A stretch of DNA of 64,000 bases from Nitrosopumilus sp. GTDB lineage: Archaea; Thermoproteota; Nitrososphaeria; Nitrososphaerales; Nitrosopumilaceae. Positions 2,756-54,786 of this stretch are shown in pieces. A model generated the notes under the pieces. The model searched no databases. It worked only from the letters and a program-made list of their open reading frames with translations, and was not told the DNA's origin. The stretch lies in NCBI GenBank assembly GCA_965207075.1, contig CBDBLO010000002.1:1536001-1600000 (forward strand), written 5' to 3'. Every line of letters begins with the position of its first letter. The stretch's first letter is position 1. Position numbers and translations under genes: made by a program.

Positions 2756-3409
2756 ATGGAAGAAGGCGACAAGTTTGACAGGCCCGACTGGGACGAGTAC
2801 TTTATGCTGCAGGCGGAGCTTGCAAAGCTTCGCTCAAACTGCATTGCGCGCAAGGTGGGGGCCGTGATCGTGAGGGACCGCCGCCAGATCGCAACGGGGT
2901 ACAACGGCACTCCGCCGGGCATAAGGAACTGCTACGAGGGGGGCTGCGACAGGTGCCAGAGGCGCGTGAAGGGACTCGTCGCGTCAGGCGAGGATCTGGG
3001 GCGCTGCCTGTGCAACCACGCGGAGGCAAACGCCATAATGCACTGCGCCATACTGGGCATAGAGGCGTCCTCGGCGAGCAGCGCCACGCTGTACACCACG
3101 TACGTGCCGTGCCTCGAGTGCACAAAGATGGCAATCACGATAGGAATCAGGAGGTTCGTGTGCCTGGAGGACTACACGGAGAGCGCAAGCCAGCTGACGC
3201 GCGAGGCCGGGGTGACCATACAGAAGATAGACCGCAGCAGGATAGACAGGTGGGCAAGGCAGATAATATCAGACGAACGCGCTGAACCGGCTCCGGCAGT
3301 TGGGGCTGCCAACGTCGCGGGGGCAGGCGCGCAAAACGGGGCTGGCGCGGGAGGGGGAGGAGAAGAGCAAGCAGAAGAGGTGGAGGATGAAGCCGCAAAA
3401 TGCGCGTAA
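2756..3409 (+). CDS. dCMP deaminase
   Basis: RPDWDEYFM, ATGYNG, HAEANA, PCLEC zinc deaminase motifs. Confidence 0.93.
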   Translation: MEEGDKFDRPDWDEYFMLQAELAKLRSNCIARKVGAVIVRDRRQIATGYNGTPPGIRNCYEGGCDRCQRRVKGLVASGEDLGRCLCNHAEANAIMHCAILGIEASSASSATLYTTYVPCLECTKMAITIGIRRFVCLEDYTESASQLTREAGVTIQKIDRSRIDRWARQIISDERAEPAPAVGAANVAGAGAQNGAGAGGGGEEQAEEVEDEAAKCA

Positions 3410-5970
3410 ACATCGGCGAATCCTCAAACCCGAAATCGATGCCCCCCTCCATGCTGGTCTCCGCCGCGTACGACGGCGCCTCCAAAAAGGCGCTGCTGAA
3501 GTTCTACGATCCGGAGTCCAAGGAGCTGTACCTGTGGTGGGATGAGACGGGGCACAAGCCATACTGCTACTCAAAGCTTAGCCCGGAGGAGCTGGGGCAT
3601 CTGAAGTCAAGGGGCGACATACTTGACATCAGTCGCGTCAAAAGGTACAGCCTGGCCGACGACTGCATGATGGAGGTCTCAAAAATAACCGCGAGCGATC
3701 CGCTTGCAATAGGCGGCAAGCCCTACGGCGACGACACGGAGAGGAGCGTACGCGACATAATAGAGACGTGGGAGTCAGACATCAAGTACTACGAGACGTA
3801 CCTGTACGACAGGCGGATTGTCGTGGGCAGGTACTACAGGGCGCAGGAAGGCAGGCTCGAGCCCGTCGACATCGAGATATCCGACGAGGTGAGCCTGGCG
3901 CTCAAGAGCCTGCTGTGGGACAAAGTGGACAGCGGAAGCATGGTCGACGAGGCGGAGTTTCGCAAGTGCATATCGGACTGGGCCGACCTGCTCAACCAGC
4001 CCATACCGGAGATAAAGCGGCTGAGCGTGGACATAGAGGTCGAGTCAGTCGAGGGCAGGCTGCCGGACTCCAAGATTGCAGACAACACGGTAACCGCGAT
4101 AGGCCTTGCCGGCACGGACGGGTTCGGGCGCGTGCTGGTGCTAAAGACGCCCGGCACGCCGGAGGGCACAAACGAGCTCGGGCCCGACATCAGGGTCGAG
4201 TTCTACGAGCCGGACTGCGAGGCGCAGATGATACGGGACGCGTTTGGGATAATGGAGTCGTACCCGTTCATACTCACATACAACGGAGACGACTTTGACC
4301 TGCCGTACCTGTACAACAGGGCGGACAGGCTCGGCATAAGAAACGAGGACAACCCGCTGCACATGCTAAAGGACTCGGCCACCCTCAAGCGGGGCGTACA
4401 CATAGACCTGTACAAGACCATGTCCAACCGCTCGTTCCAGATATACGCGTTCGGCCAGAAATACACGGACTTTTCACTCAACAGCGTCTCAGTGGCGCTG
4501 CTCGGCAAGCAGAAGATAGACTACGGACTGAAGTTTGACGAGATGTCACTCTACCAGACTGCCAACTACTGCTACCACGACGCGCTGCTCACGTACGAGC
4601 TGACCAGCTTCGGGGACGGCATACTGATGAACCTGCTTGTGACCATATCGCGGATCGGGAGGATGCCCATCGACGACATCGCAAGGCTCGGGGTCTCGCA
4701 GTGGATCCGCAGCCTGCTGTACTATGAGCACCGCGTCCGCGACTGCATCATACCAAAGAGGGACGAGCTTGCAAAGCGCACAGAGGACGTCACGGCAGAC
4801 GCGGTCATAAAGGACAAAAAGTACAGGGGCGGCCTCGTGGTGGAGCCGCAGAGCGGCGTCCACTTTGACGTCGTCGTGATGGACTTTGCAAGCCTGTACC
4901 CGAGCATCATAAAGGTGCGCAACCTGTCCTACGAGACGGTCAGGTGCCCCCACCCCGAGTGCCGCAAGAACTCGATACCCCAGACAAAGCACTGGGCGTG
5001 CTCGAAGAGGAACGGGATCACGTCAGAGATAATAGGGTCTCTGCGCGACCTGAGGGTCAACTACTACAAGAGCCTGTCAAGAAAGGAGACGCTCACGGAG
5101 GTGCAGCGCCAGCAGTACACGGCGGTAAGCCAGGCGCTCAAGGTCATACTCAACGCAAGCTACGGCGTGATGGGGGCCGACATATTCCCCCTGTACTTTC
5201 TGCCCGCCGCCGAGGCCACCACGGCCATAGGCAGGCACACCATACTGGAGACCATAAAGAAGAGCAAGGACGCCGGCGTCGACGTGCTGTACGGGGACAC
5301 GGACTCGCTGTTCATCAAGAGCCCCACGGCAGAGCAGGTACAGTACATGATAGACGAGGCCAAAAAGGACCACGGGGTCGACCTGGAGATCGACAAGGAG
5401 TACAGGTACTGCGTCCTGAGCAACCGAAAGAAGAACTACCTCGGGGTCTCAAAGTCAGGCCAGGTGGACGTAAAGGGGCTGACCGGCAAAAAGTCGCACA
5501 CGCCGCCGTTCATCAGGAAGTTGTTTGCAGACATACTCGGGGTGCTGGCCGGCGTGCAGAGCCCCGAGGAGTTCGAGCAGGCAAAAGGCGTGATATCGAA
5601 GATGATACAGGAGTGCGGCAAGAGGATAGAGGGCCTTGAGATACCCCTCGACGAGATGGCATTCAGCATGATGCTCAGCAAGGCGCCCTCAGAGTACACA
5701 AAGACGCAGCCGCAGCACATCAGGGCCGCGCGCCAGCTTGACGGCATCAAGGAGCTGAAGAGGGGCGACAGGATCTCGTTTGTAAAGACCATCGGAAAGC
5801 CCGGGGTGAGGCCGCTTGAGATTGCGCGCAAGGGCGAGATTGACACGACAAAGTACGCGGAGTTCCTCGAGTCGACCCTGGAGCAGGTCACGTCCACGAT
5901 GGACATGGACTTTGACGTCATACTCAAAAAGCCAAAACAGTCGGGGCTCGACCAGTTCTTCTGGGGATGA
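3400..5970 (+). CDS. polB: Family B DNA polymerase (PolB1 type)
   Basis: DIE exonuclease motif, YNGDDFD, DFASLYPSII, KVILNASYG, YGDTDS; C-terminal PIP-like QSGLDQFF. Confidence 0.97.
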   Translation: MRVNIGESSNPKSMPPSMLVSAAYDGASKKALLKFYDPESKELYLWWDETGHKPYCYSKLSPEELGHLKSRGDILDISRVKRYSLADDCMMEVSKITASDPLAIGGKPYGDDTERSVRDIIETWESDIKYYETYLYDRRIVVGRYYRAQEGRLEPVDIEISDEVSLALKSLLWDKVDSGSMVDEAEFRKCISDWADLLNQPIPEIKRLSVDIEVESVEGRLPDSKIADNTVTAIGLAGTDGFGRVLVLKTPGTPEGTNELGPDIRVEFYEPDCEAQMIRDAFGIMESYPFILTYNGDDFDLPYLYNRADRLGIRNEDNPLHMLKDSATLKRGVHIDLYKTMSNRSFQIYAFGQKYTDFSLNSVSVALLGKQKIDYGLKFDEMSLYQTANYCYHDALLTYELTSFGDGILMNLLVTISRIGRMPIDDIARLGVSQWIRSLLYYEHRVRDCIIPKRDELAKRTEDVTADAVIKDKKYRGGLVVEPQSGVHFDVVVMDFASLYPSIIKVRNLSYETVRCPHPECRKNSIPQTKHWACSKRNGITSEIIGSLRDLRVNYYKSLSRKETLTEVQRQQYTAVSQALKVILNASYGVMGADIFPLYFLPAAEATTAIGRHTILETIKKSKDAGVDVLYGDTDSLFIKSPTAEQVQYMIDEAKKDHGVDLEIDKEYRYCVLSNRKKNYLGVSKSGQVDVKGLTGKKSHTPPFIRKLFADILGVLAGVQSPEEFEQAKGVISKMIQECGKRIEGLEIPLDEMAFSMMLSKAPSEYTKTQPQHIRAARQLDGIKELKRGDRISFVKTIGKPGVRPLEIARKGEIDTTKYAEFLESTLEQVTSTMDMDFDVILKKPKQSGLDQFFWG

Positions 5971-27602: not shown

Positions 27603-27686
27603 GATCGGCGTGCCGCGTGTCGTCTTAAAATTGTACTTGCGGCGTCGAGTCCGAGATCCGGCTGCATGGGACGGTCCGCACGCGCG

Positions 27687-28031
27687 CTACAGGTCCCGCA
27701 TCGTGGAGATGGTGTTTTTTGTCACGTGCCCGATCTCGTGTATGGTCGAGCTGTTGTACCTCTTCTCGAGGTAACGTCCTGCCAGGATCATGGGGGCCCC
27801 CACGGCGCACGTGACGCCGGTCGGCTCCGGAATCCAGAGCATGATAAAGCCGATCTTTTGGATCTTTTTTCCGGGGGCGGGCGCGTTCCTCAGGTACTTT
27901 AGGGAGCCGTCGGATATGGCGTTGTGCCCCACCCTTGCGACGTCCTTGTACAGATCGGAGCGGGCCGAGGCAGAGTGCGATATGCGCCTGAGGCGTTCCA
28001 TGCGCCTGCGCACAGGGTCGTCCGGATGCAT
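27687..28031 (-). CDS. Hypothetical protein
   Basis: Coherent ORF with KIGFIMLWIPEPTGVTCAVGAPMILAG segment; start uncertain. Confidence 0.6.
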   Translation of the reverse strand: MHPDDPVRRRMERLRRISHSASARSDLYKDVARVGHNAISDGSLKYLRNAPAPGKKIQKIGFIMLWIPEPTGVTCAVGAPMILAGRYLEKRYNSSTIHEIGHVTKNTISTMRDL

Positions 28032-48541: not shown

Positions 48542-50251
48542 TCACGAGGGGAGTATCATGTCCTTGAGCGGCGTGCCCGGAGCCACAAAGGGGAGCACGT
48601 CCTCCTCGGGGTCAATAGGTATGTCGATCACAGTCGCAACGTCGCTTGCAAGGGCGGCCTTGAGGGCAGAGCCCAGCTCGTCCAGGGACTGGGCCCTGAT
48701 GCCCTGGGCCCCGTACGATTCGGCAAGCTTGACATAGTCCGGGCACCGGCCCTGATCCACGCCAATCATGCGGCGCTCATAGAACGTGCGCTGCCACTGG
48801 GCCACCATCCCAAGCGAGTAGTTGTTTATCAGGAATACGATAACCGGAATGTCCTCAAGTACGGCGGTGGCAAGCGAGTTCTCAGTCATGTTAAAGCTGC
48901 CATCCCCCGCAATGTCCACGACATGTACGTCGGGCCTGGCGACCTTTGCCCCGATCGCGGCGGGGAACCCCCACCCCATGGTGCCGAGCCCGGTCGAGCT
49001 GAAAAAGGTGCCCGGGTGTATCACGTCAAAGAACAGGGAGGCCCACATCTGGTGCTGCCCGACCTCCGTGGTCACTATGGAGTCGGCCGGAAGCAGTTCG
49101 CGGAGCTTTCGGAGTATCTTGGCCGCCCCCATCTCGCCGGGGTGTATCTTGAGGTTTTCCTTCCAGTACGACTTGGTCTCCTTGGCATTCTTGAGCCACG
49201 CGGTCTCCTCTACGAGGCGCGGCTTGTTCTCCAAAAGCTTCAGCATGATGCGCAGGGAGGCCCTGACGTCGCCCACCACGGCCACGCTCGTAGTCTGGTT
49301 CTTTCCAATCTCCGCGGGATCCACGTCCATGTGGATTATCTTGCGCCGGCGCTCAAAGTCCTCAAACGTCCCGACCGACCTGTCAGAGAACCTTGTGCCG
49401 ATCGCAAGCACGCAGTCGGCCTGGTCTATGATGCGGTTTGCCTCCGCGTGCCCGTGCATCCCTATGGGGCCCAGCGACAGCGGGTGGTTCTCTGGAAACG
49501 CCCCCTTTCCCTTGAACGTGGTGACGACTGGAATCATCAAGAGCTCGGCCAGCGCCTGAAGCTCTGCAAAAGCCGACGAGATTATGGTGCCGCCGCCGGC
49601 AAGTATCACGGGCCTCTCCGTGTTGAGCAGGATGGCAATGGCGCGCTCCACGTTTGTAACGTCCGGGTCGGTCCACGGGTGGTATCCCTTTATCTGGAAC
49701 TCGTTTGGAAACACCATGTCAGCCTCGTTCTGCTGCACGTCCTTTGGGATGTCAATCAGCACGGGGCCAGGCCTGCCGGTCTCGGCTATGAAAAAGCCCT
49801 TCCTGACCGACTCGGGGATCTCCGATGCCGCACGGGGCTGAAACGCGTACTTTACGACCGGGTTTGCCATGCCGATTATGTCACTCTCCTGGAACGCGTC
49901 GCGCCCTATCATGGACACGGGCACCTGTCCCGTCACCGCCACCATAGGCGCAGAGTCGGCCTGCGCGGTCGCAATGCCAGTCAGTATGTTCGTGGCGCCA
50001 GGGCCCGACGTCGCAAAGCACACGCCCGGCTTTCGGCTGACTCGCCCAAAGCCGTCTGCCATGTGGGCCGCGGACTGCTCGTGCCTCACCAGTATGTGCC
50101 GTATGTCGCACCTTGCAAACTCGTCGTACATTGGCAGGTTGGCGCCGCCTGGCAGTCCAAAGACCTGTCGGACGCCCTCCTTCTCCATTGCCACCATCAG
50201 CGCCTTTGCGCCCGACATGTGTTGCGCTTCGCTTACGAGATCGCTTGCCAT
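48542..50251 (-). CDS. ilvB: Acetolactate synthase large subunit
   Basis: FGLPGGA, RHEQSAAHMADG, TSGPGATN, GQHQMW, GDGSF..N TPP motif. Confidence 0.96.
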   Translation of the reverse strand: MASDLVSEAQHMSGAKALMVAMEKEGVRQVFGLPGGANLPMYDEFARCDIRHILVRHEQSAAHMADGFGRVSRKPGVCFATSGPGATNILTGIATAQADSAPMVAVTGQVPVSMIGRDAFQESDIIGMANPVVKYAFQPRAASEIPESVRKGFFIAETGRPGPVLIDIPKDVQQNEADMVFPNEFQIKGYHPWTDPDVTNVERAIAILLNTERPVILAGGGTIISSAFAELQALAELLMIPVVTTFKGKGAFPENHPLSLGPIGMHGHAEANRIIDQADCVLAIGTRFSDRSVGTFEDFERRRKIIHMDVDPAEIGKNQTTSVAVVGDVRASLRIMLKLLENKPRLVEETAWLKNAKETKSYWKENLKIHPGEMGAAKILRKLRELLPADSIVTTEVGQHQMWASLFFDVIHPGTFFSSTGLGTMGWGFPAAIGAKVARPDVHVVDIAGDGSFNMTENSLATAVLEDIPVIVFLINNYSLGMVAQWQRTFYERRMIGVDQGRCPDYVKLAESYGAQGIRAQSLDELGSALKAALASDVATVIDIPIDPEEDVLPFVAPGTPLKDMILPS

Positions 50252-50261
50252 CGTGCTGCAA

Positions 50262-50384
50262 TCACATCCAGAGCCGGGATCCGGCGGCGTGCGATGCCGC
50301 GCCCGGAGCCGGCTCTGCCATGGCGTCCGCGGCGTGCGCCCTAGGCGCCTTGGCACGCGCGCACATCGTCACTAGTATCATCAT
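50262..50384 (-). promoter_or_regulatory. Candidate leader ORF (MMILVTM..., 40 aa) upstream of ilvB
   Basis: ATG ATG ATA CTA GTG ACG...TGA ends 10 nt before the ilvB ATG; function speculative. Confidence 0.35.
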
Positions 50385-50415
50385 ATTCAAACCACATAAA
50401 TAACCTGCGTCACAT

Positions 50416-50430
50416 CTAATAAAGTTTCCC
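50416..50430 (-). promoter_or_regulatory. Putative BRE-TATA element for the ilvB cluster
   Basis: GGGAAAC-TTTATTAG on the minus strand; alternative TTATTTAT at 50396-50403. Confidence 0.5.
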
Positions 50431-50437
50431 AATCATT
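50430..50437. repeat. Target-site duplication CAATCATT, copy 1 of 3 (others at 51865-51872 and 53133-53140)
   Basis: Exact 8-mer abuts every IS end. Confidence 0.92.
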
Positions 50438-50464
50438 AATTCTGTTTCCTAATTGCACCAGTAG

Positions 50465-50489
50465 GCACCCGCCTGGCCGGGTGTTTTTT
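50465..50489 (+). terminator. Hairpin + T-run just inside the left end of IS-A
   Basis: GCACCCG-cctggc-CGGGTGT followed by TTTTT. Confidence 0.5.
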
Positions 50490-50655
50490 GCATGTTAGTC
50501 AGGTATTTTTCGCCTTGGGTGTTAAGTGTGCATGACACGATGTCCCACCGCACACAAATGATGGGACAAAGATGCCAGGCACAAGGCATACTTGCAGGGC
50601 ATGGCTTTAAGCATGGCGCGGCGGCGCGGTCCGTCCGCAGAGGAGGGGACTGTCC

Positions 50656-51792
50656 GTGAGCAGGGCCGGGCGCGGCGCGGCTGCAAAGACTGACAACGAA
50701 AAGTACGTCAGGCGCGGCGCGGATCTGGTCATTGAATATGATCCGGAGTGGGAGGATGACGTAAGGCGCGCAAACGAGGGCAAGGTGGGCGCCCCGTACC
50801 AGTACGCGGACACGCTCATCATGCTGGCCGCCGGCATCAGGGTCGCGCAGGGGGTCCGGTACAGGCAGCTCCAGGGGATGGTCGGCAAGATGATAGGCAG
50901 GTCCAACGCGCCCGTGTTCAGCCAGCTGTGCAAGCGGATCAACGGGCTTGACGCGGACATCCGCCGGGGCCCGGACGGGATGGTGACGGTGTCGGACAGG
51001 GAGGGGCCGCGGGTGCTGGCGCTCGACGCGAGCGGGCTCAAGCAGCACAACAGGGGCGAATGGATGAGGGCCAAGTGGAAGGTGAGGCGGGGCTTTGTAA
51101 AGATGCACGTGCTGGTCGACACGGAGACCATGAAGATACTCGCGCTGGAGGTCACCGACGACTCCGTGGGAGACCCGACCATGTTCGAGTCGCTGCTCGG
51201 ACAGGTCGTGGACGCGGACGGCGCCAATGCGGAGGACGGCACGCGGCACGCGGAGCCGCCCGCCGCGCCCCGCTCCGACGGCGGCGGTCCGAGGTACGAA
51301 AACCTGCTCGCGTCCGGCGTCTCCCCGCTCGCGTCGTTCTTCCCGGGCGCCCCCCGGGACCGGACCGCGCCCGACCTCCTGCTCGGCGATGCCGCGTACG
51401 GCTCAAGAAAAAACATATCCGCGTGCGCGCGGGCCGGGGTGACACCGGGCATTGCGCACACCGTCAACGTGACGGCGCGCGGCAAGGGATCCGGAGACGC
51501 GTGGGGCATGTCGGTAAGGGACCAGATGGGCGGAAGCCCCGACGCGACGCGCCTGGACCTGATGGGCAGGGAGCAGAAGAGGGAGAACCAGACGTACTGG
51601 AAGGCCCGCATAGGCTACGGCTTTCGCTGGCTCGTGGAGAGCGTGTTTTCGGCGTTCAAGCGCCTGTTCGGAGAGCACCTGTTGGCCCTCAAGTGGGAAA
51701 ACATCGTGCAGGAGGTAAAACTCAAGGTGATCCAGTACAACAAGTGGAGGGACGAGTCGATAGTGCGGGAGGCGGGAGGCGGGACGTCCTGA
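50656..51792 (+). CDS. IS5-family DDE transposase
   Basis: LALDASGLK, GFVKMHV, GDAAYGS, YGFRWLVESVFSAFKRLFG; GGAGGGG SD before the GTG. Confidence 0.93.
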   Translation: MSRAGRGAAAKTDNEKYVRRGADLVIEYDPEWEDDVRRANEGKVGAPYQYADTLIMLAAGIRVAQGVRYRQLQGMVGKMIGRSNAPVFSQLCKRINGLDADIRRGPDGMVTVSDREGPRVLALDASGLKQHNRGEWMRAKWKVRRGFVKMHVLVDTETMKILALEVTDDSVGDPTMFESLLGQVVDADGANAEDGTRHAEPPAAPRSDGGGPRYENLLASGVSPLASFFPGAPRDRTAPDLLLGDAAYGSRKNISACARAGVTPGIAHTVNVTARGKGSGDAWGMSVRDQMGGSPDATRLDLMGREQKRENQTYWKARIGYGFRWLVESVFSAFKRLFGEHLLALKWENIVQEVKLKVIQYNKWRDESIVREAGGGTS

Positions 51793-51872
51793 TGGCATGA
51801 CGCCCATGTCGCCGTCCGATAGGGACTCGGCAGGCATCCAGATGGCGAATTAGGAAACAAAGTTCAATCATT

Positions 51873-53132
51873 TAGTCTGTTGCATAACTCAGCACAGCCC
51901 GTCACAAGAGCCATGTCCTGACATGCCGTCTGATGTTCCTACGCTCCTACCTCCTGCCACCTGTTGTACTGGGCCGCCCTGAGTCGTATCTCCTGCACCA
52001 TGTGTTCCCACTTGCGCGAGTGCATGTGGTCCCCGAACATCCTCTTGAACGCGGATATGATTATCTCGATCAGCCACCTCCTGTTGTAGCCCACCCTGCT
52101 CTTCCAGTACCTCTTGTTCTCCTCCCTCTCCTCCATGCCGATGCTGCTTACGCGCGTCTCCGGACTGCCTCCGAGCTGCTCCCGTACCGCCTCGCCCCAC
52201 GCGTCACCCGTGCCCATGCCCCTGGCATTGCACCTTGCCTGGATTGGAATGAGCGGCCTGATGCCCATGTCCTTGCATTCCTGCACGTTGGCCCGTGAGG
52301 CGTATGCCCCGTCTGCCATCAGGCATGCCCCGCGGGAACCGGGCCGCCGGCCGCACAGCAGCGCAAGCGGCGACATGCCTTCTGCAAGGTTGTTGGGCGG
52401 GGGCAGATCCACGCGCGGTATCGGGCCGCCTGCCGCGCCCGTCCTTCCGCGGATTAGCGCCGCGCGCCCGCCCGGCCTTTCCCGCCGTTTACGGTCCCTC
52501 CGCCCCGCCACGGTTCCCAGCAGATCCTCCAGCACCGGGGAGTCGCCCACCTTGTCGTCGGTCACCATCACTGCAAGTATCCTCTTGGTGCCTGCGTCTG
52601 CCAGCAGGTGTATCTTGACAAACCCCCGCCTGACCCTCCACTTTTGGCGTATCCACTCCCCGCGGTTGCACTGCTTGAGGCCCGACGAGTCTGCCAGCAG
52701 CATCATGTGCGCGCTCCCGTCCGAGACGCGGACAAGGCCGCCGTCGATGTCCACGTCAAGGCGGTTTATCCTCCTGCACAGTATGGAGTAGTGCGGCGAG
52801 TCATGTCCCTCCAGCATCGCTGCAAGGAACCCGGACAGCTGCCTGTACTGCATTCCCAGCGCGGTCCTCAGCGCGGCCGCGGCCATGATCAGCCCGTCGG
52901 CATACCTGAACGGGGCGCCCTCCTTGGAGCAGTTGGCCTCCGTCAGGTCTTCCTCCCAGCCCGGATCATGGGCCACTGCCAGCCCCTTTCCGCGCCTGAC
53001 GTATTTTGCATTGTCAGTTGCCAACAGATATCGTATCCAGCCGTGATCTTTAGCTTTTTCGGTTTGGCGTGGTTAGATCAGCGGGTCATCTGTATTGCAC
53101 CGGGCAATTCTGGGGAGTTATGCAACAGACTA
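51873..53132 (-). mobile_element. IS5-family insertion sequence B (1260 bp)
   Basis: Perfect 18-bp TIRs TAGTCTGTTGCATAACTC (51873-51890) / GAGTTATGCAACAGACTA (53115-53132); flanked by CAATCATT. Confidence 0.94.
51939..53024 (-). CDS. IS5-family DDE transposase
   Basis: LADSSGLK, GFVKIHL, ADGAYAS, YNRRWLIEIIISAFKRMFG. Confidence 0.93.
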   Translation of the reverse strand: MATDNAKYVRRGKGLAVAHDPGWEEDLTEANCSKEGAPFRYADGLIMAAAALRTALGMQYRQLSGFLAAMLEGHDSPHYSILCRRINRLDVDIDGGLVRVSDGSAHMMLLADSSGLKQCNRGEWIRQKWRVRRGFVKIHLLADAGTKRILAVMVTDDKVGDSPVLEDLLGTVAGRRDRKRRERPGGRAALIRGRTGAAGGPIPRVDLPPPNNLAEGMSPLALLCGRRPGSRGACLMADGAYASRANVQECKDMGIRPLIPIQARCNARGMGTGDAWGEAVREQLGGSPETRVSSIGMEEREENKRYWKSRVGYNRRWLIEIIISAFKRMFGDHMHSRKWEHMVQEIRLRAAQYNRWQEVGA

Positions 53133-53462
53133 CAATCATTCACGGTAACTGCCGACCCGCGGTTACAAACCCGTCGGCGTCTGTCAGAGGCAACCACCAG
53201 AATACCAGTTTGCCACGGCGGCACGCACCCATATGGCCGCGTATCAGGGACGCGCTCGAGTTGCGGCCCGACGGCGCGTATAACCTGCAGAGTCCAAAGC
53301 CGTCGGCAATGCGGCGCGCCGCCGAGCCTCCCGCCGGAGGGCAACCGACGCAGGCCGCTTCCATTCAGGATGGTCGCTTGTCTGACGCACCCCGCCAGGC
53401 CACCGCATCGCGTCACCTTTCCGCAGATTGTCATTCGTTAATAACCCCCGCCCTGCCACAAC

Positions 53463-54209
53463 ATGCCGATGAATGACAACGTCAAGAATGTCATCTACGC
53501 GGTTGCGGCTGTGTTGGTGACTGTTCCTGCATTGCATTACGCGGGAGATTACGTCCAGTTTCACCGGCACATGATGGGCCTCGACATTGACGACGGCTCC
53601 TGCGATGCTGCCTGCGCGGCAGAGCTCATGACCGGGTGGTATGACGAGTATGAAGAAGGCTATGCGTGCGTGGAGGTCAGCCCGGACAGGTACGTCTGCC
53701 GGCCACCGCGCGGGGCCGACAACCTCCTGAGGGAAGGCTACCAACCCATGCAGATAGCGGCGCCCAACTTGTCGCACGGCGAAATCTTTGTTGTCGCGGC
53801 CGACGGCAGCGACAGAGGCTTCTACCAAGTCGGCGAGGTGGTCTTGGTTGACAAGCAAGCGGACATAATCACGATCAGCTTTTACGCCCCCGAGCCGGCA
53901 GGTGACAGTGACGCAATCCACATGGCCCAGATGTCGCCCGGCGACACCTACGTGCAGTGTCATCTGGAGATGCAAGACCTCTTCCATCTGGTGGAGTACA
54001 CAGGGACGTTTGATCTGGACGGGACGACGATGGCGGAGTTCTGGGCCGCCCACATAGGGCCCCAGCCGCCCGAGCTGTCGCCGTGCGACCCCAAGAAGGT
54101 AATCAGCAGGAGCCTCCAGATTGACTACGATCTGGGGCTGCCCCCGTACGAGGAATTCGAGCGCGTGTTCATGGAAAAGCAGTCGCGGCAGCACGGCCCG
54201 CTCCCGTGA
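53463..54209 (+). CDS. Hypothetical secreted/membrane-anchored protein
   Basis: N-terminal hydrophobic segment; paired Cys; TTAATAA ~20 nt upstream. Confidence 0.7.
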   Translation: MPMNDNVKNVIYAVAAVLVTVPALHYAGDYVQFHRHMMGLDIDDGSCDAACAAELMTGWYDEYEEGYACVEVSPDRYVCRPPRGADNLLREGYQPMQIAAPNLSHGEIFVVAADGSDRGFYQVGEVVLVDKQADIITISFYAPEPAGDSDAIHMAQMSPGDTYVQCHLEMQDLFHLVEYTGTFDLDGTTMAEFWAAHIGPQPPELSPCDPKKVISRSLQIDYDLGLPPYEEFERVFMEKQSRQHGPLP

Positions 54210-54381
54210 TTTTCGCTTGACGCCGCGTTCGGCCTTTGCGTGCATGATCTGCAGAGTGCGGTCTATTTTTAGGCGGCTGCCGGAACTCCCGTTGTCGGTA
54301 TCGGGATGGCGTCCGTAGTACAAAAAAGGAGGCGGGCCTGCTCACAAGGTTTAAACCGATACCGCATGTGACAACAGCGGC

Positions 54382-54786
54382 TTGGGCGAGAGCGGCAGCG
54401 TAATCAGCGTGATCGAGGAGTTCTTCAGGGCGGGGATCACAAAGGACCTGTCGAGGCTCGGGGAGATACAGCTTGACGACTCGAGGTTCTCGAGCTTCAG
54501 CGACCTGCCGCCGTACGACCTCAAGGGGTACAGGGAGACCATTGAGCTCGAAGAGCTGCGCTTTGTGAGCATATCGGACTATTCATACGAGATAAAGAAC
54601 CCAAAGATAAGCGTGTACGATGACGCGGCGGTGGTGGCAGCAGAACTGGTGCAGACCGGCATGCTGGTAGACAACAAGTCGTTTACAGGCAAGCACATGA
54701 CCGTGTCGGGACGAGCGACGTTCGTACTGATAAAGGATGGCGCCGCATGGAAGATAGTCCACATACACCTCTCAAGGACGGACTGA
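54382..54786 (+). CDS. NTF2/SnoaL-like fold protein
   Basis: DDAAVV, GRATFVL.K....WKIVHIHLS C-terminal signature; TTTAAA ~30 nt upstream. Confidence 0.8.
   Translation: MGESGSVISVIEEFFRAGITKDLSRLGEIQLDDSRFSSFSDLPPYDLKGYRETIELEELRFVSISDYSYEIKNPKISVYDDAAVVAAELVQTGMLVDNKSFTGKHMTVSGRATFVLIKDGAAWKIVHIHLSRTD

Follow-up and report, generated by a model that had tools for sequence, protein, structure and literature searches.

The window analysed here (the whole 64-kb stretch of DNA, C2:1536001-1600000 of a two-contig, 2.23-Mb Nitrosopumilus genome) carries two different insertion sequences (IS) of the IS5 family, IS-A and IS-B, which stand side by side at three copies of one 8-bp target site duplication (TSD), CAATCATT: one copy on either side of the array and one between the elements. 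It is probable that the array arose when one element inserted, in a directed manner, at the end of a relative already resident, so that the repeat flanking that end was duplicated once again. This reading draws on the anatomy of the array, the absence of a target consensus among related elements, the recurrence of such stacks in other genomes, and the exact spacing of the element ends.

Target choice sets the damage done by transposable elements and the genome rearrangement that they cause. End-directed insertion has previously been documented for a few bacterial families moving through circles (IS30, IS3, and IS26-like), and the genomic footprint described here suggests a comparable habit in IS5-family elements. 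New in comparison with the circle-moving families are the diverged partners, the regeneration of a full duplication, and the occurrence in archaea as well as in bacteria.

Anatomy of the array

The window contains exactly three copies of the 8-mer CAATCATT (at 50430, 51865, and 53133), all of which adjoin ends of IS-A or IS-B. The count alone is unremarkable, as 16 of 100 shuffles contained at least three matches; it is the positions that are remarkable. The terminal inverted repeats (TIRs) are AATTCTGTTTCCTAATT and AATTAGGAAACAAAGTT in IS-A (17 nt, 88% complementary) and TAGTCTGTTGCATAACTC and GAGTTATGCAACAGACTA in IS-B (18 nt, 100% complementary). The boundaries of IS-A were confirmed by two other copies in the genome (100% and 99.65% identical), which show identical end bases with other 8-bp duplications. 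The genome inventory comprises three copies of IS-A (100%, 100%, and 99.65%), two of IS-A', a relative at 88%, a short element on contig C1, and a single IS-B, for which one full-length match was found in the whole genome. IS-A and IS-B lie tail to tail, each element meeting the junction with the end that follows its transposase gene.

Both elements are intact. Their transposases share 48% protein identity and their DNA can be aligned only in patches (66-70%); therefore, the array is not a duplication. These findings bear out the sequence-only reading made earlier from this DNA, according to which two different elements had inserted in two separate events into one 8-bp register. An origin by tandem duplication of one element and its repeat, with later divergence of the copies or recombination between them, would suit the head-to-tail order of most stacks described below. 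It is excluded in the window because of the tail-to-tail orientation of the pair, whose proteins are in addition only 48% identical. It is likewise excluded in two bacterial stacks (L076 and L091) because their three repeats and end sequences are identical around interiors that differ by 25-32%, and we give this explanation next to no credence.

Table 1 Features of the array, with positions in the window.
Feature	Position	Strand	Remarks
Orphan sequence similar to an A-type left inverted repeat, AATAAAGTTTCCCAATCATT	50418..50437	+	final 8 nt are repeat copy 1
TSD copy 1, CAATCATT	50430..50437		directly left of IS-A
IS-A, IS5 family, 1427 bp	50438..51864	+	TIRs 50438-50454 and 51848-51864; inverted-repeat detection
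IS-A transposase gene, 378 aa	50656..51792	+	sole long open reading frame of IS-A
TSD copy 2, CAATCATT	51865..51872		8-bp spacer from IS-A right end to IS-B right end
IS-B, IS5 family, 1260 bp	51873..53132	-	TIRs 51873-51890 and 53115-53132; single copy in genome
IS-B transposase gene, 361 aa	51939..53024	-	sole long open reading frame of IS-B
TSD copy 3, CAATCATT	53133..53140		directly right of IS-B

Transposases and family assignment

Both transposases, IS-A and IS-B respectively, scored above the cut-offs of the NCBIfam IS5-family model NF033579 (transpos_IS5_2; 186.5 and 186.1 bits, cut-off 140), Pfam PF01609 (DDE_Tnp_1; 66 and 71 bits, cut-off 23), and Pfam PF13737 (DDE_Tnp_1_5; 35 and 46 bits, cut-off 28.1). 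The spacing Y-(2)-R-(3)-E-(6)-K is the IS5-family signature, and the IS5 subgroups are named after ISfinder. The putative catalytic residues of IS-A, by hand count on the pairwise alignment, are D124, D245, Y321, R324, E328, and K335; those of IS-B are D112, D238, Y313, R316, E320, and K327, all of them in invariant columns of a further alignment. Judged from the alignments, both transposases appear to keep the D, D, E residues as well as the signature spacing. Short TIRs and a duplication of fixed length, which also mark the family, were found as well (17/18-nt TIRs; 8 bp in 18 of 21 relatives). IS-A and IS-B are members of one IS5-family clade. Common to all ends of the clade is a core, TGTT(G/T)C(A/C)(C/T)AA, at positions 6-15 from the tip; the duplication is 8 bp long, or 9 bp in some bacterial relatives.

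Target sequences of related elements

The sequence-only reading had proposed strong site selection shared across the clade, either through recognition of the site itself or, in an alternative wording, through targeting of a resident element's end. The other duplications of IS-A and IS-A' in this genome (CACAGAAC, TCGCGCCG, TTAAGATA, and TGATGCGC) are mutually unrelated. Among 21 delimited elements of the clade, from this and other genomes, the duplication was perfect (8/8) in 18, 7/8 in 1, and mismatched in 2; the 18 perfect duplications comprised 16 different 8-mers, with no consensus. A strong sequence-specific site common to the clade is accordingly not supported. The alternative wording is favoured by the comparative data presented below, in which the stacks occupy differing sequences and the spacer is always as long as the duplication. 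The earlier reading had also named unrelated TSDs at other copies, along with a complete lack of stacking, as evidence that would count against it: unrelated TSDs were indeed found, but stacks do recur elsewhere.

The site could nevertheless be an intrinsic hot spot, in line with the first option of the sequence-only reading, where the 8 bp and their surroundings are preferred through sequence, bendability, or a motif resembling an inverted repeat (IR), and where both elements chose their place independently. Many insertion sites do have AT-rich flanks. However, single copies have no target consensus, and a first insertion leaves only half of the original context in place, yet the second one occurred in the exact register. 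Taken with the stacks described below and the orphan sequence considered further on, these points make a hot spot an unlikely explanation, albeit the least unlikely of the alternatives considered.

Stacks in Nitrosopumilaceae

We searched 401 Nitrosopumilaceae genomes for two outward-facing cores separated by N{14,22}, that is, with the ends 4-12 bp apart. Six genomes matched, five of them besides that of the window, and every gap was N=18 (5+8+5), whereas a reversed-pattern control gave 1 match over the nine spacings. A search widened to N{5,35} yielded nine places, namely six at N=18, two at N=5 with overlapping ends (one of these in G233), and one at N=34; its reversed-pattern control matched 7 genomes over 31 spacings. 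Hence, among non-overlapping end pairs 0-30 bp apart, six of seven were spaced by exactly 8 bp.

This spacing bears on the possibility that targeting is absent and that the elements came to lie side by side by chance, insertions beside a resident being retained because they harm no gene. The genomes concerned are small and gene-dense, and IS clusters do occur in them, such as the four matches in the first 50 kb of G071. On that account, however, any position in or near a resident would be tolerable, yet six of these seven end pairs show the same 8-bp distance; by our estimate, a random insertion would fall in one particular 8-bp register of a genome of 2.2 Mb with a probability of about 1e-6. 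An exact register cannot be accounted for by selection for harmless sites, and we regard this explanation as very unlikely.

A full triple-repeat stack like that of the window was found in a genome of the same genus (G311), with the structure ATGTAAAC-IS-C (1372 bp)-ATGTAAAC-IS-D (1425 bp)-ATGTAAAC. IS-C, of which a second copy (98.7%) exists, has an intact open reading frame whose 356-aa product shares 32% identity with the IS-A transposase; the transposase frame of IS-D is interrupted by stops. An active element thus seems to have landed beside an old one. In another genus (G036), a 130-bp miniature inverted-repeat transposable element (MITE) with a perfect TTCCTTTT duplication adjoins a B-type IS, the far flank of which is ACATGTAA. 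Because this far flank differs, the re-used 8-mer is defined only by its adjoining the resident's end, which is contrary to the expectation for a hot spot. G071 contains a full IS with a GGGGCAAC duplication that adjoins an end remnant of ~55 nt just past the stop codon of a host gene; the remnant has ~50 nt of homology, read by eye, to the right end of the element, and L013 shows the same place. The remaining two matches were an 81-bp MITE adjoining another end (G093; flanks GAACTCCA and GAACCCCA) and a tandem of the same element with CTGCCTCT, the second copy of which is cut by the contig end (G067), so that little weight is placed on it.

Partners in stacks therefore include a MITE, an end remnant, and a decayed element. 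The orientation was mostly head to tail (G311, G067, and G071 with its end remnant, as well as L076 and L091 described below). Genomes bearing stacks contained 4 to 18 transposase-like matches, which are numbers of matches and not of copies. Separately from the stacks, two outward-facing ends at G036:C1:1535486-1535510 (L038, ~2480-2520) overlap by 5 nt without a spacer (TTAGGAAACAGAGTTTGTTTCCCAA).

Stacks beyond the family

Scanning one genome per species (185,579 species) for the N=18 arrangement returned 46 stretches, 5 of them in Nitrosopumilaceae/Thaumarchaeota records, and all were checked for a matching repeat at the distal end. Four stretches repeated the family stacks with identical strings. 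A complete stack was found in L076 (Acidobacteriota by its record title), in the form CGCGGCAG-1035 bp-CGCGGCAG-1041 bp-CGCGGCAG, the two elements of which are 67.7% identical to each other and weakly similar to the query transposases. In L068 (Poribacteria), a 331-bp MITE with a ACTTAAAT duplication adjoins another end. One further stretch, L072, is discussed later; the match in L056 proved to be its own tandem 115-bp repeat unit and was set aside as chance or unrelated, as were the remaining 38 of the 46 stretches, in which no matching repeat was found.

The same scan at N=19 gave 68 stretches, none of them (0/68) from Nitrosopumilaceae/Thaumarchaeota records. L091 (Anaerolineales) contained a complete stack with three copies of a 9-bp repeat, GGCGAGGAA, around elements of 1151 and 1200 bp (75% identical), and L088, L129, and L151 showed a 9-bp duplication adjoining a second end. 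Since a 9-bp stack occurs at N=19 and 8-bp stacks at N=18, the spacer tracks the duplication length. In total, four complete triple-repeat stacks of two different elements were found (the window, G311, L076, and L091). They lie at unrelated 8- or 9-mers, and the outer flanks of the other stacks lack an IR-like motif, both of which argue against a hot spot.

Many contigs of several Omnitrophota metagenome-assembled genomes (L088, L097, L105, L106, L121, L123, L127, L139, L142, and L145) shared a recurring, near-constant 39-mer, TTATGCAACA AAACA GGTTCAAAC AGAAA TGTTGCATAA, whose sole variation is in the five bases preceding the second core. This block was rejected as a set of stacks; the 39-mer seems to belong to a repeat unit in which the same end core was used.

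Read evidence for the array

An array of this kind could also be an assembly artefact, in which an IS-A allele and an IS-B allele of one site were joined in series. The genome does come from a mixed sample, and the multicopy IS-A breaks contigs at its ends. We examined this with Logan contigs from four runs, placed on 50000-53600. In run X19, record 16 spans 51837-53600 and thereby holds the end of IS-A, the repeat, all of IS-B, and the right flank in one piece; in run X20, record 21 spans 51837-52126. These two runs come from two studies, and both records carry the terminal 28 nt of IS-A, followed by the repeat and the beginning of IS-B, with 36 letters left of the boundary between repeat and IS-B. 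On the left side, records of X19, X20, and X22 span 50000-50467. Beyond the IS-A end, the listed loose ends correspond to the flanks of the two other IS-A copies, and among the loose ends listed (11 more exist) there was neither an IS-A end followed by the right flank CAATCATTCACGG nor the left flank followed by IS-B. Furthermore, the same architecture was present in several other assemblies. Collapsed alleles, which the sequence-only reading had named as a possible objection, are therefore unlikely, the evidence being good though not final, and we consider an artefactual origin of the array highly improbable.

A related strain was detected in X1, a sponge metagenome run, with 6 differences in 437 nt of the left flank. 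Its flank contigs end at 50437 (+1 letter) and begin at 53133 (-2 letters), which are the boundaries of the array. The same run has a 98%-identical IS-B at another site with the duplication GTTTCCAT, and one contig of X20 has the IS-B end followed by a different flank, TCAAACCC. With IS-B at other sites in both runs, the element is evidently mobile in this lineage. In the closest genomes compared, the neighbouring ilvB is only 78% identical and the intergenic region does not align.

A side observation concerns the right flank, where one X20 contig with a depth of 19.8, against ~200 around it, skips 115 bp at 53308-53424. The population therefore includes a minor variant with this deletion.

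Proposed mode of insertion

Under the favoured reading, one element would first have been resident with its own CAATCATT duplication, and the second would then have inserted into exactly the 8 bp adjoining the resident's end. One strand transfer would take place exactly where the resident's terminus meets its flanking DNA, the other 8 (or 9) bp outward from there, and repair would yield the third copy of the same 8 bp. The incoming complex of transposase and DNA may be tethered or attracted to the resident relative's terminal inverted repeat, and the resident's own bound transposase may help in targeting. Such targeting could work across diverged elements because they share the repeat core, which would be a plausible handle. 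We infer this tethering and the order of arrival from the end states described above. With regard to that order, IS-B is single-copy and intact; we lean modestly towards IS-A as the later arrival, because its 100% identical copy elsewhere suggests recent movement.

It is possible, though we place it slightly below an even chance, that the stacks reflect a homing mode evolved across the clade, in ammonia-oxidising archaea and several bacterial phyla. The complex would recognise the core in every kind of resident relative, MITEs and dead end remnants among them, and would integrate into the adjoining duplication. If so, homing would serve as a safe-haven strategy in genomes that are small and gene-dense; it would build mixed IS arrays and be the functional opposite of target immunity. 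If confirmed, directed insertion would explain the origin of IS clusters in streamlined symbiont genomes and would offer a simple assay system with a 25-60-bp end as the bait. It would also provide a rule for annotation: wherever the distance between two ends is exactly the duplication length, they are to be read as a stack, not as a composite element or an error.

Several points weigh against directed insertion. The whole case is built on end-state genomics. The empty site reconstructed in the sequence-only reading remains a reconstruction: no empty or single-occupied allele of the locus was found in the closest genomes and metagenome contigs, and scans of metagenome contigs with a 24-mer of left flank plus repeat and with a 22-mer of the IS-B end each gave 0 matches. 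The Logan contigs may share data with the assembly, and no single record covers the entire array. The end motif was derived from the window and its relatives, so that the window's own match was built in; the other five were not. One of the six family matches, G067, may be an assembly effect. In L072 (Nitrosopumilus sp., 3090-4121), two ends lie 8 bp apart with the spacer TAAAATAG, but no matching direct repeat was found: the far flank of the left element, CTATTTCA, approximates the reverse complement of the spacer, so that the flanks are inverted 8-mers. Either the repeats of the left element extend 8 nt beyond their assumed length, or there has been an inversion.

The last point is the orphan sequence at the left border of the array (Table 1), 12 of whose 20 bases are identical to the IS-A left end in a hand alignment. 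Its core, GTTTCCCAAT, lies at 50424-50433, 6 nt left of the repeat, and is the sole match outside IS-A in the window. Genome-wide, all 13 matches but this one are ends of delimited elements. The site itself, rather than a resident end, could thus have drawn both elements, and the GTTTCCAT duplication of IS-B in X1 together with its flank also resembles an A-type repeat (by eye). An IR-like target sequence may itself attract the elements, which would favour a hot spot at this one locus. Alternatively, the orphan may be a relic of an end that was once resident here, in keeping with iterative end-seeking. Its geometry differs from that of the stacks, as the repeat overlaps the inner half of the IR-like sequence.

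Comparison with known systems

For IS30, PMC9333248 describes IR targeting, that is, integration beside a resident IR, in addition to ordinary target choice, and likens its steps to the targeted transposition of IS911. It also states that IS30 uses its own IR as the target, forms only an IRL-IRR junction with 2-bp target repeats, which is reactive and reversible, and moves by copy-out-paste-in through circles (PMC9333248). The elements described here resemble IS30 and IS911 in that, judged from end states, insertion takes place directly beside a resident terminal repeat (all six family matches at 8 bp; four complete stacks). They differ in five respects: the partners are different elements with 30-75% identity; a full 8- or 9-bp duplication is regenerated on both sides, in contrast to a 2-3-bp spacer; the junction in the window joins two right ends instead of IRL and IRR; the arrays are long-lived, old enough for the decay of a partner (IS-D in G311); and the transposases belong to the IS5 family.

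Units of IS26 (IS6/IS26 family) insert preferentially beside another IS26 and so build IS arrays, according to PMC4196232. Insertion adjoining a resident copy and the building of arrays are common to IS26 and the present elements. The targeted conservative reaction of IS26 needs two IS26 copies and is not known to create an additional IS copy or a further duplication, whereas here a new duplication was made and the partners differ. The behaviour thus works like that of IS30, IS911, and IS26 in seeking a resident end but fails their defining details.

ISH1 of Halobacterium has the 8-bp duplication AGCCGCCA, with 1,130 bp given for 'ISH1 + TSD' and 1,122 bp for one ISH1 (PMC7002104). The present elements are similar to it in their IS5-family DDE transposase, short TIRs, and 8-bp duplication; with the ISH1 subgroup as such, the likeness is one of duplication length. 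Resident ends also affect the landing of a second copy in the target immunity of Tn3, Tn7, and Mu, in which DNA containing the element's own ends is avoided. The effect here has the opposite sign, as the elements appear to seek ends.

The consulted portions of a survey of thaumarchaeal IS report tandem casposons and proviruses, and no mention of stacked IS was found in them (PMC6563490). In the literature searched, as far as the accessible text of the papers goes, end targeting was reported for IS30, IS911, and IS26 only, and no report was found for IS5-family or thaumarchaeal elements.

Neighbouring region and other elements

The array is bordered on one side by a divergently oriented open reading frame resembling acetolactate synthase (48542-50356, -) and on the other by a 1.2-kb stretch. 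The latter (53141-54381) separates the array from a SnoaL-like gene (54382-54786) and has no counterpart in the closest genome, G002, where the homologues of ilvB and of the SnoaL-like gene lie ~300 bp apart. It contains two overlapping long open reading frames, 53463-54209 (+) and 53244-54323 (-), neither of which matched a Pfam family. The idea that the orphan sequence marks a third, degenerate element right of the array was rejected, as no transposase similarity was detected at 53141-54400 (tblastn, E 1e-3) and a search allowing one mismatch showed no partner for the repeat core.

Three further observations concern other elements. On contig C1 of G000, a 288-bp MITE-like element (27683-27970) has A-type ends, AACTCTGTTTCCTAATT, on both sides and contains no transposase; no matching 8-bp duplication was found in its flanks at the boundaries set. 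In L009 (1479-2896), an IS110-family element (open reading frame 1673-2764; PF01548 and PF02371) sits inside the left IR of a B-type IS. The host IS retains a perfect ATGCCTAA duplication, and the first 10 nt of its repeat, TAGTCTGTTG, recur at the left edge of the insert. Finally, an A-type IS in L020 (2577-4137) has two tandem left-end repeats 94 bp apart, and the duplication CAACAAAC fits the outer of the two, a hybrid end with a B-type tip and an A-type core (TAGTCTGTTTCCTAATTA).

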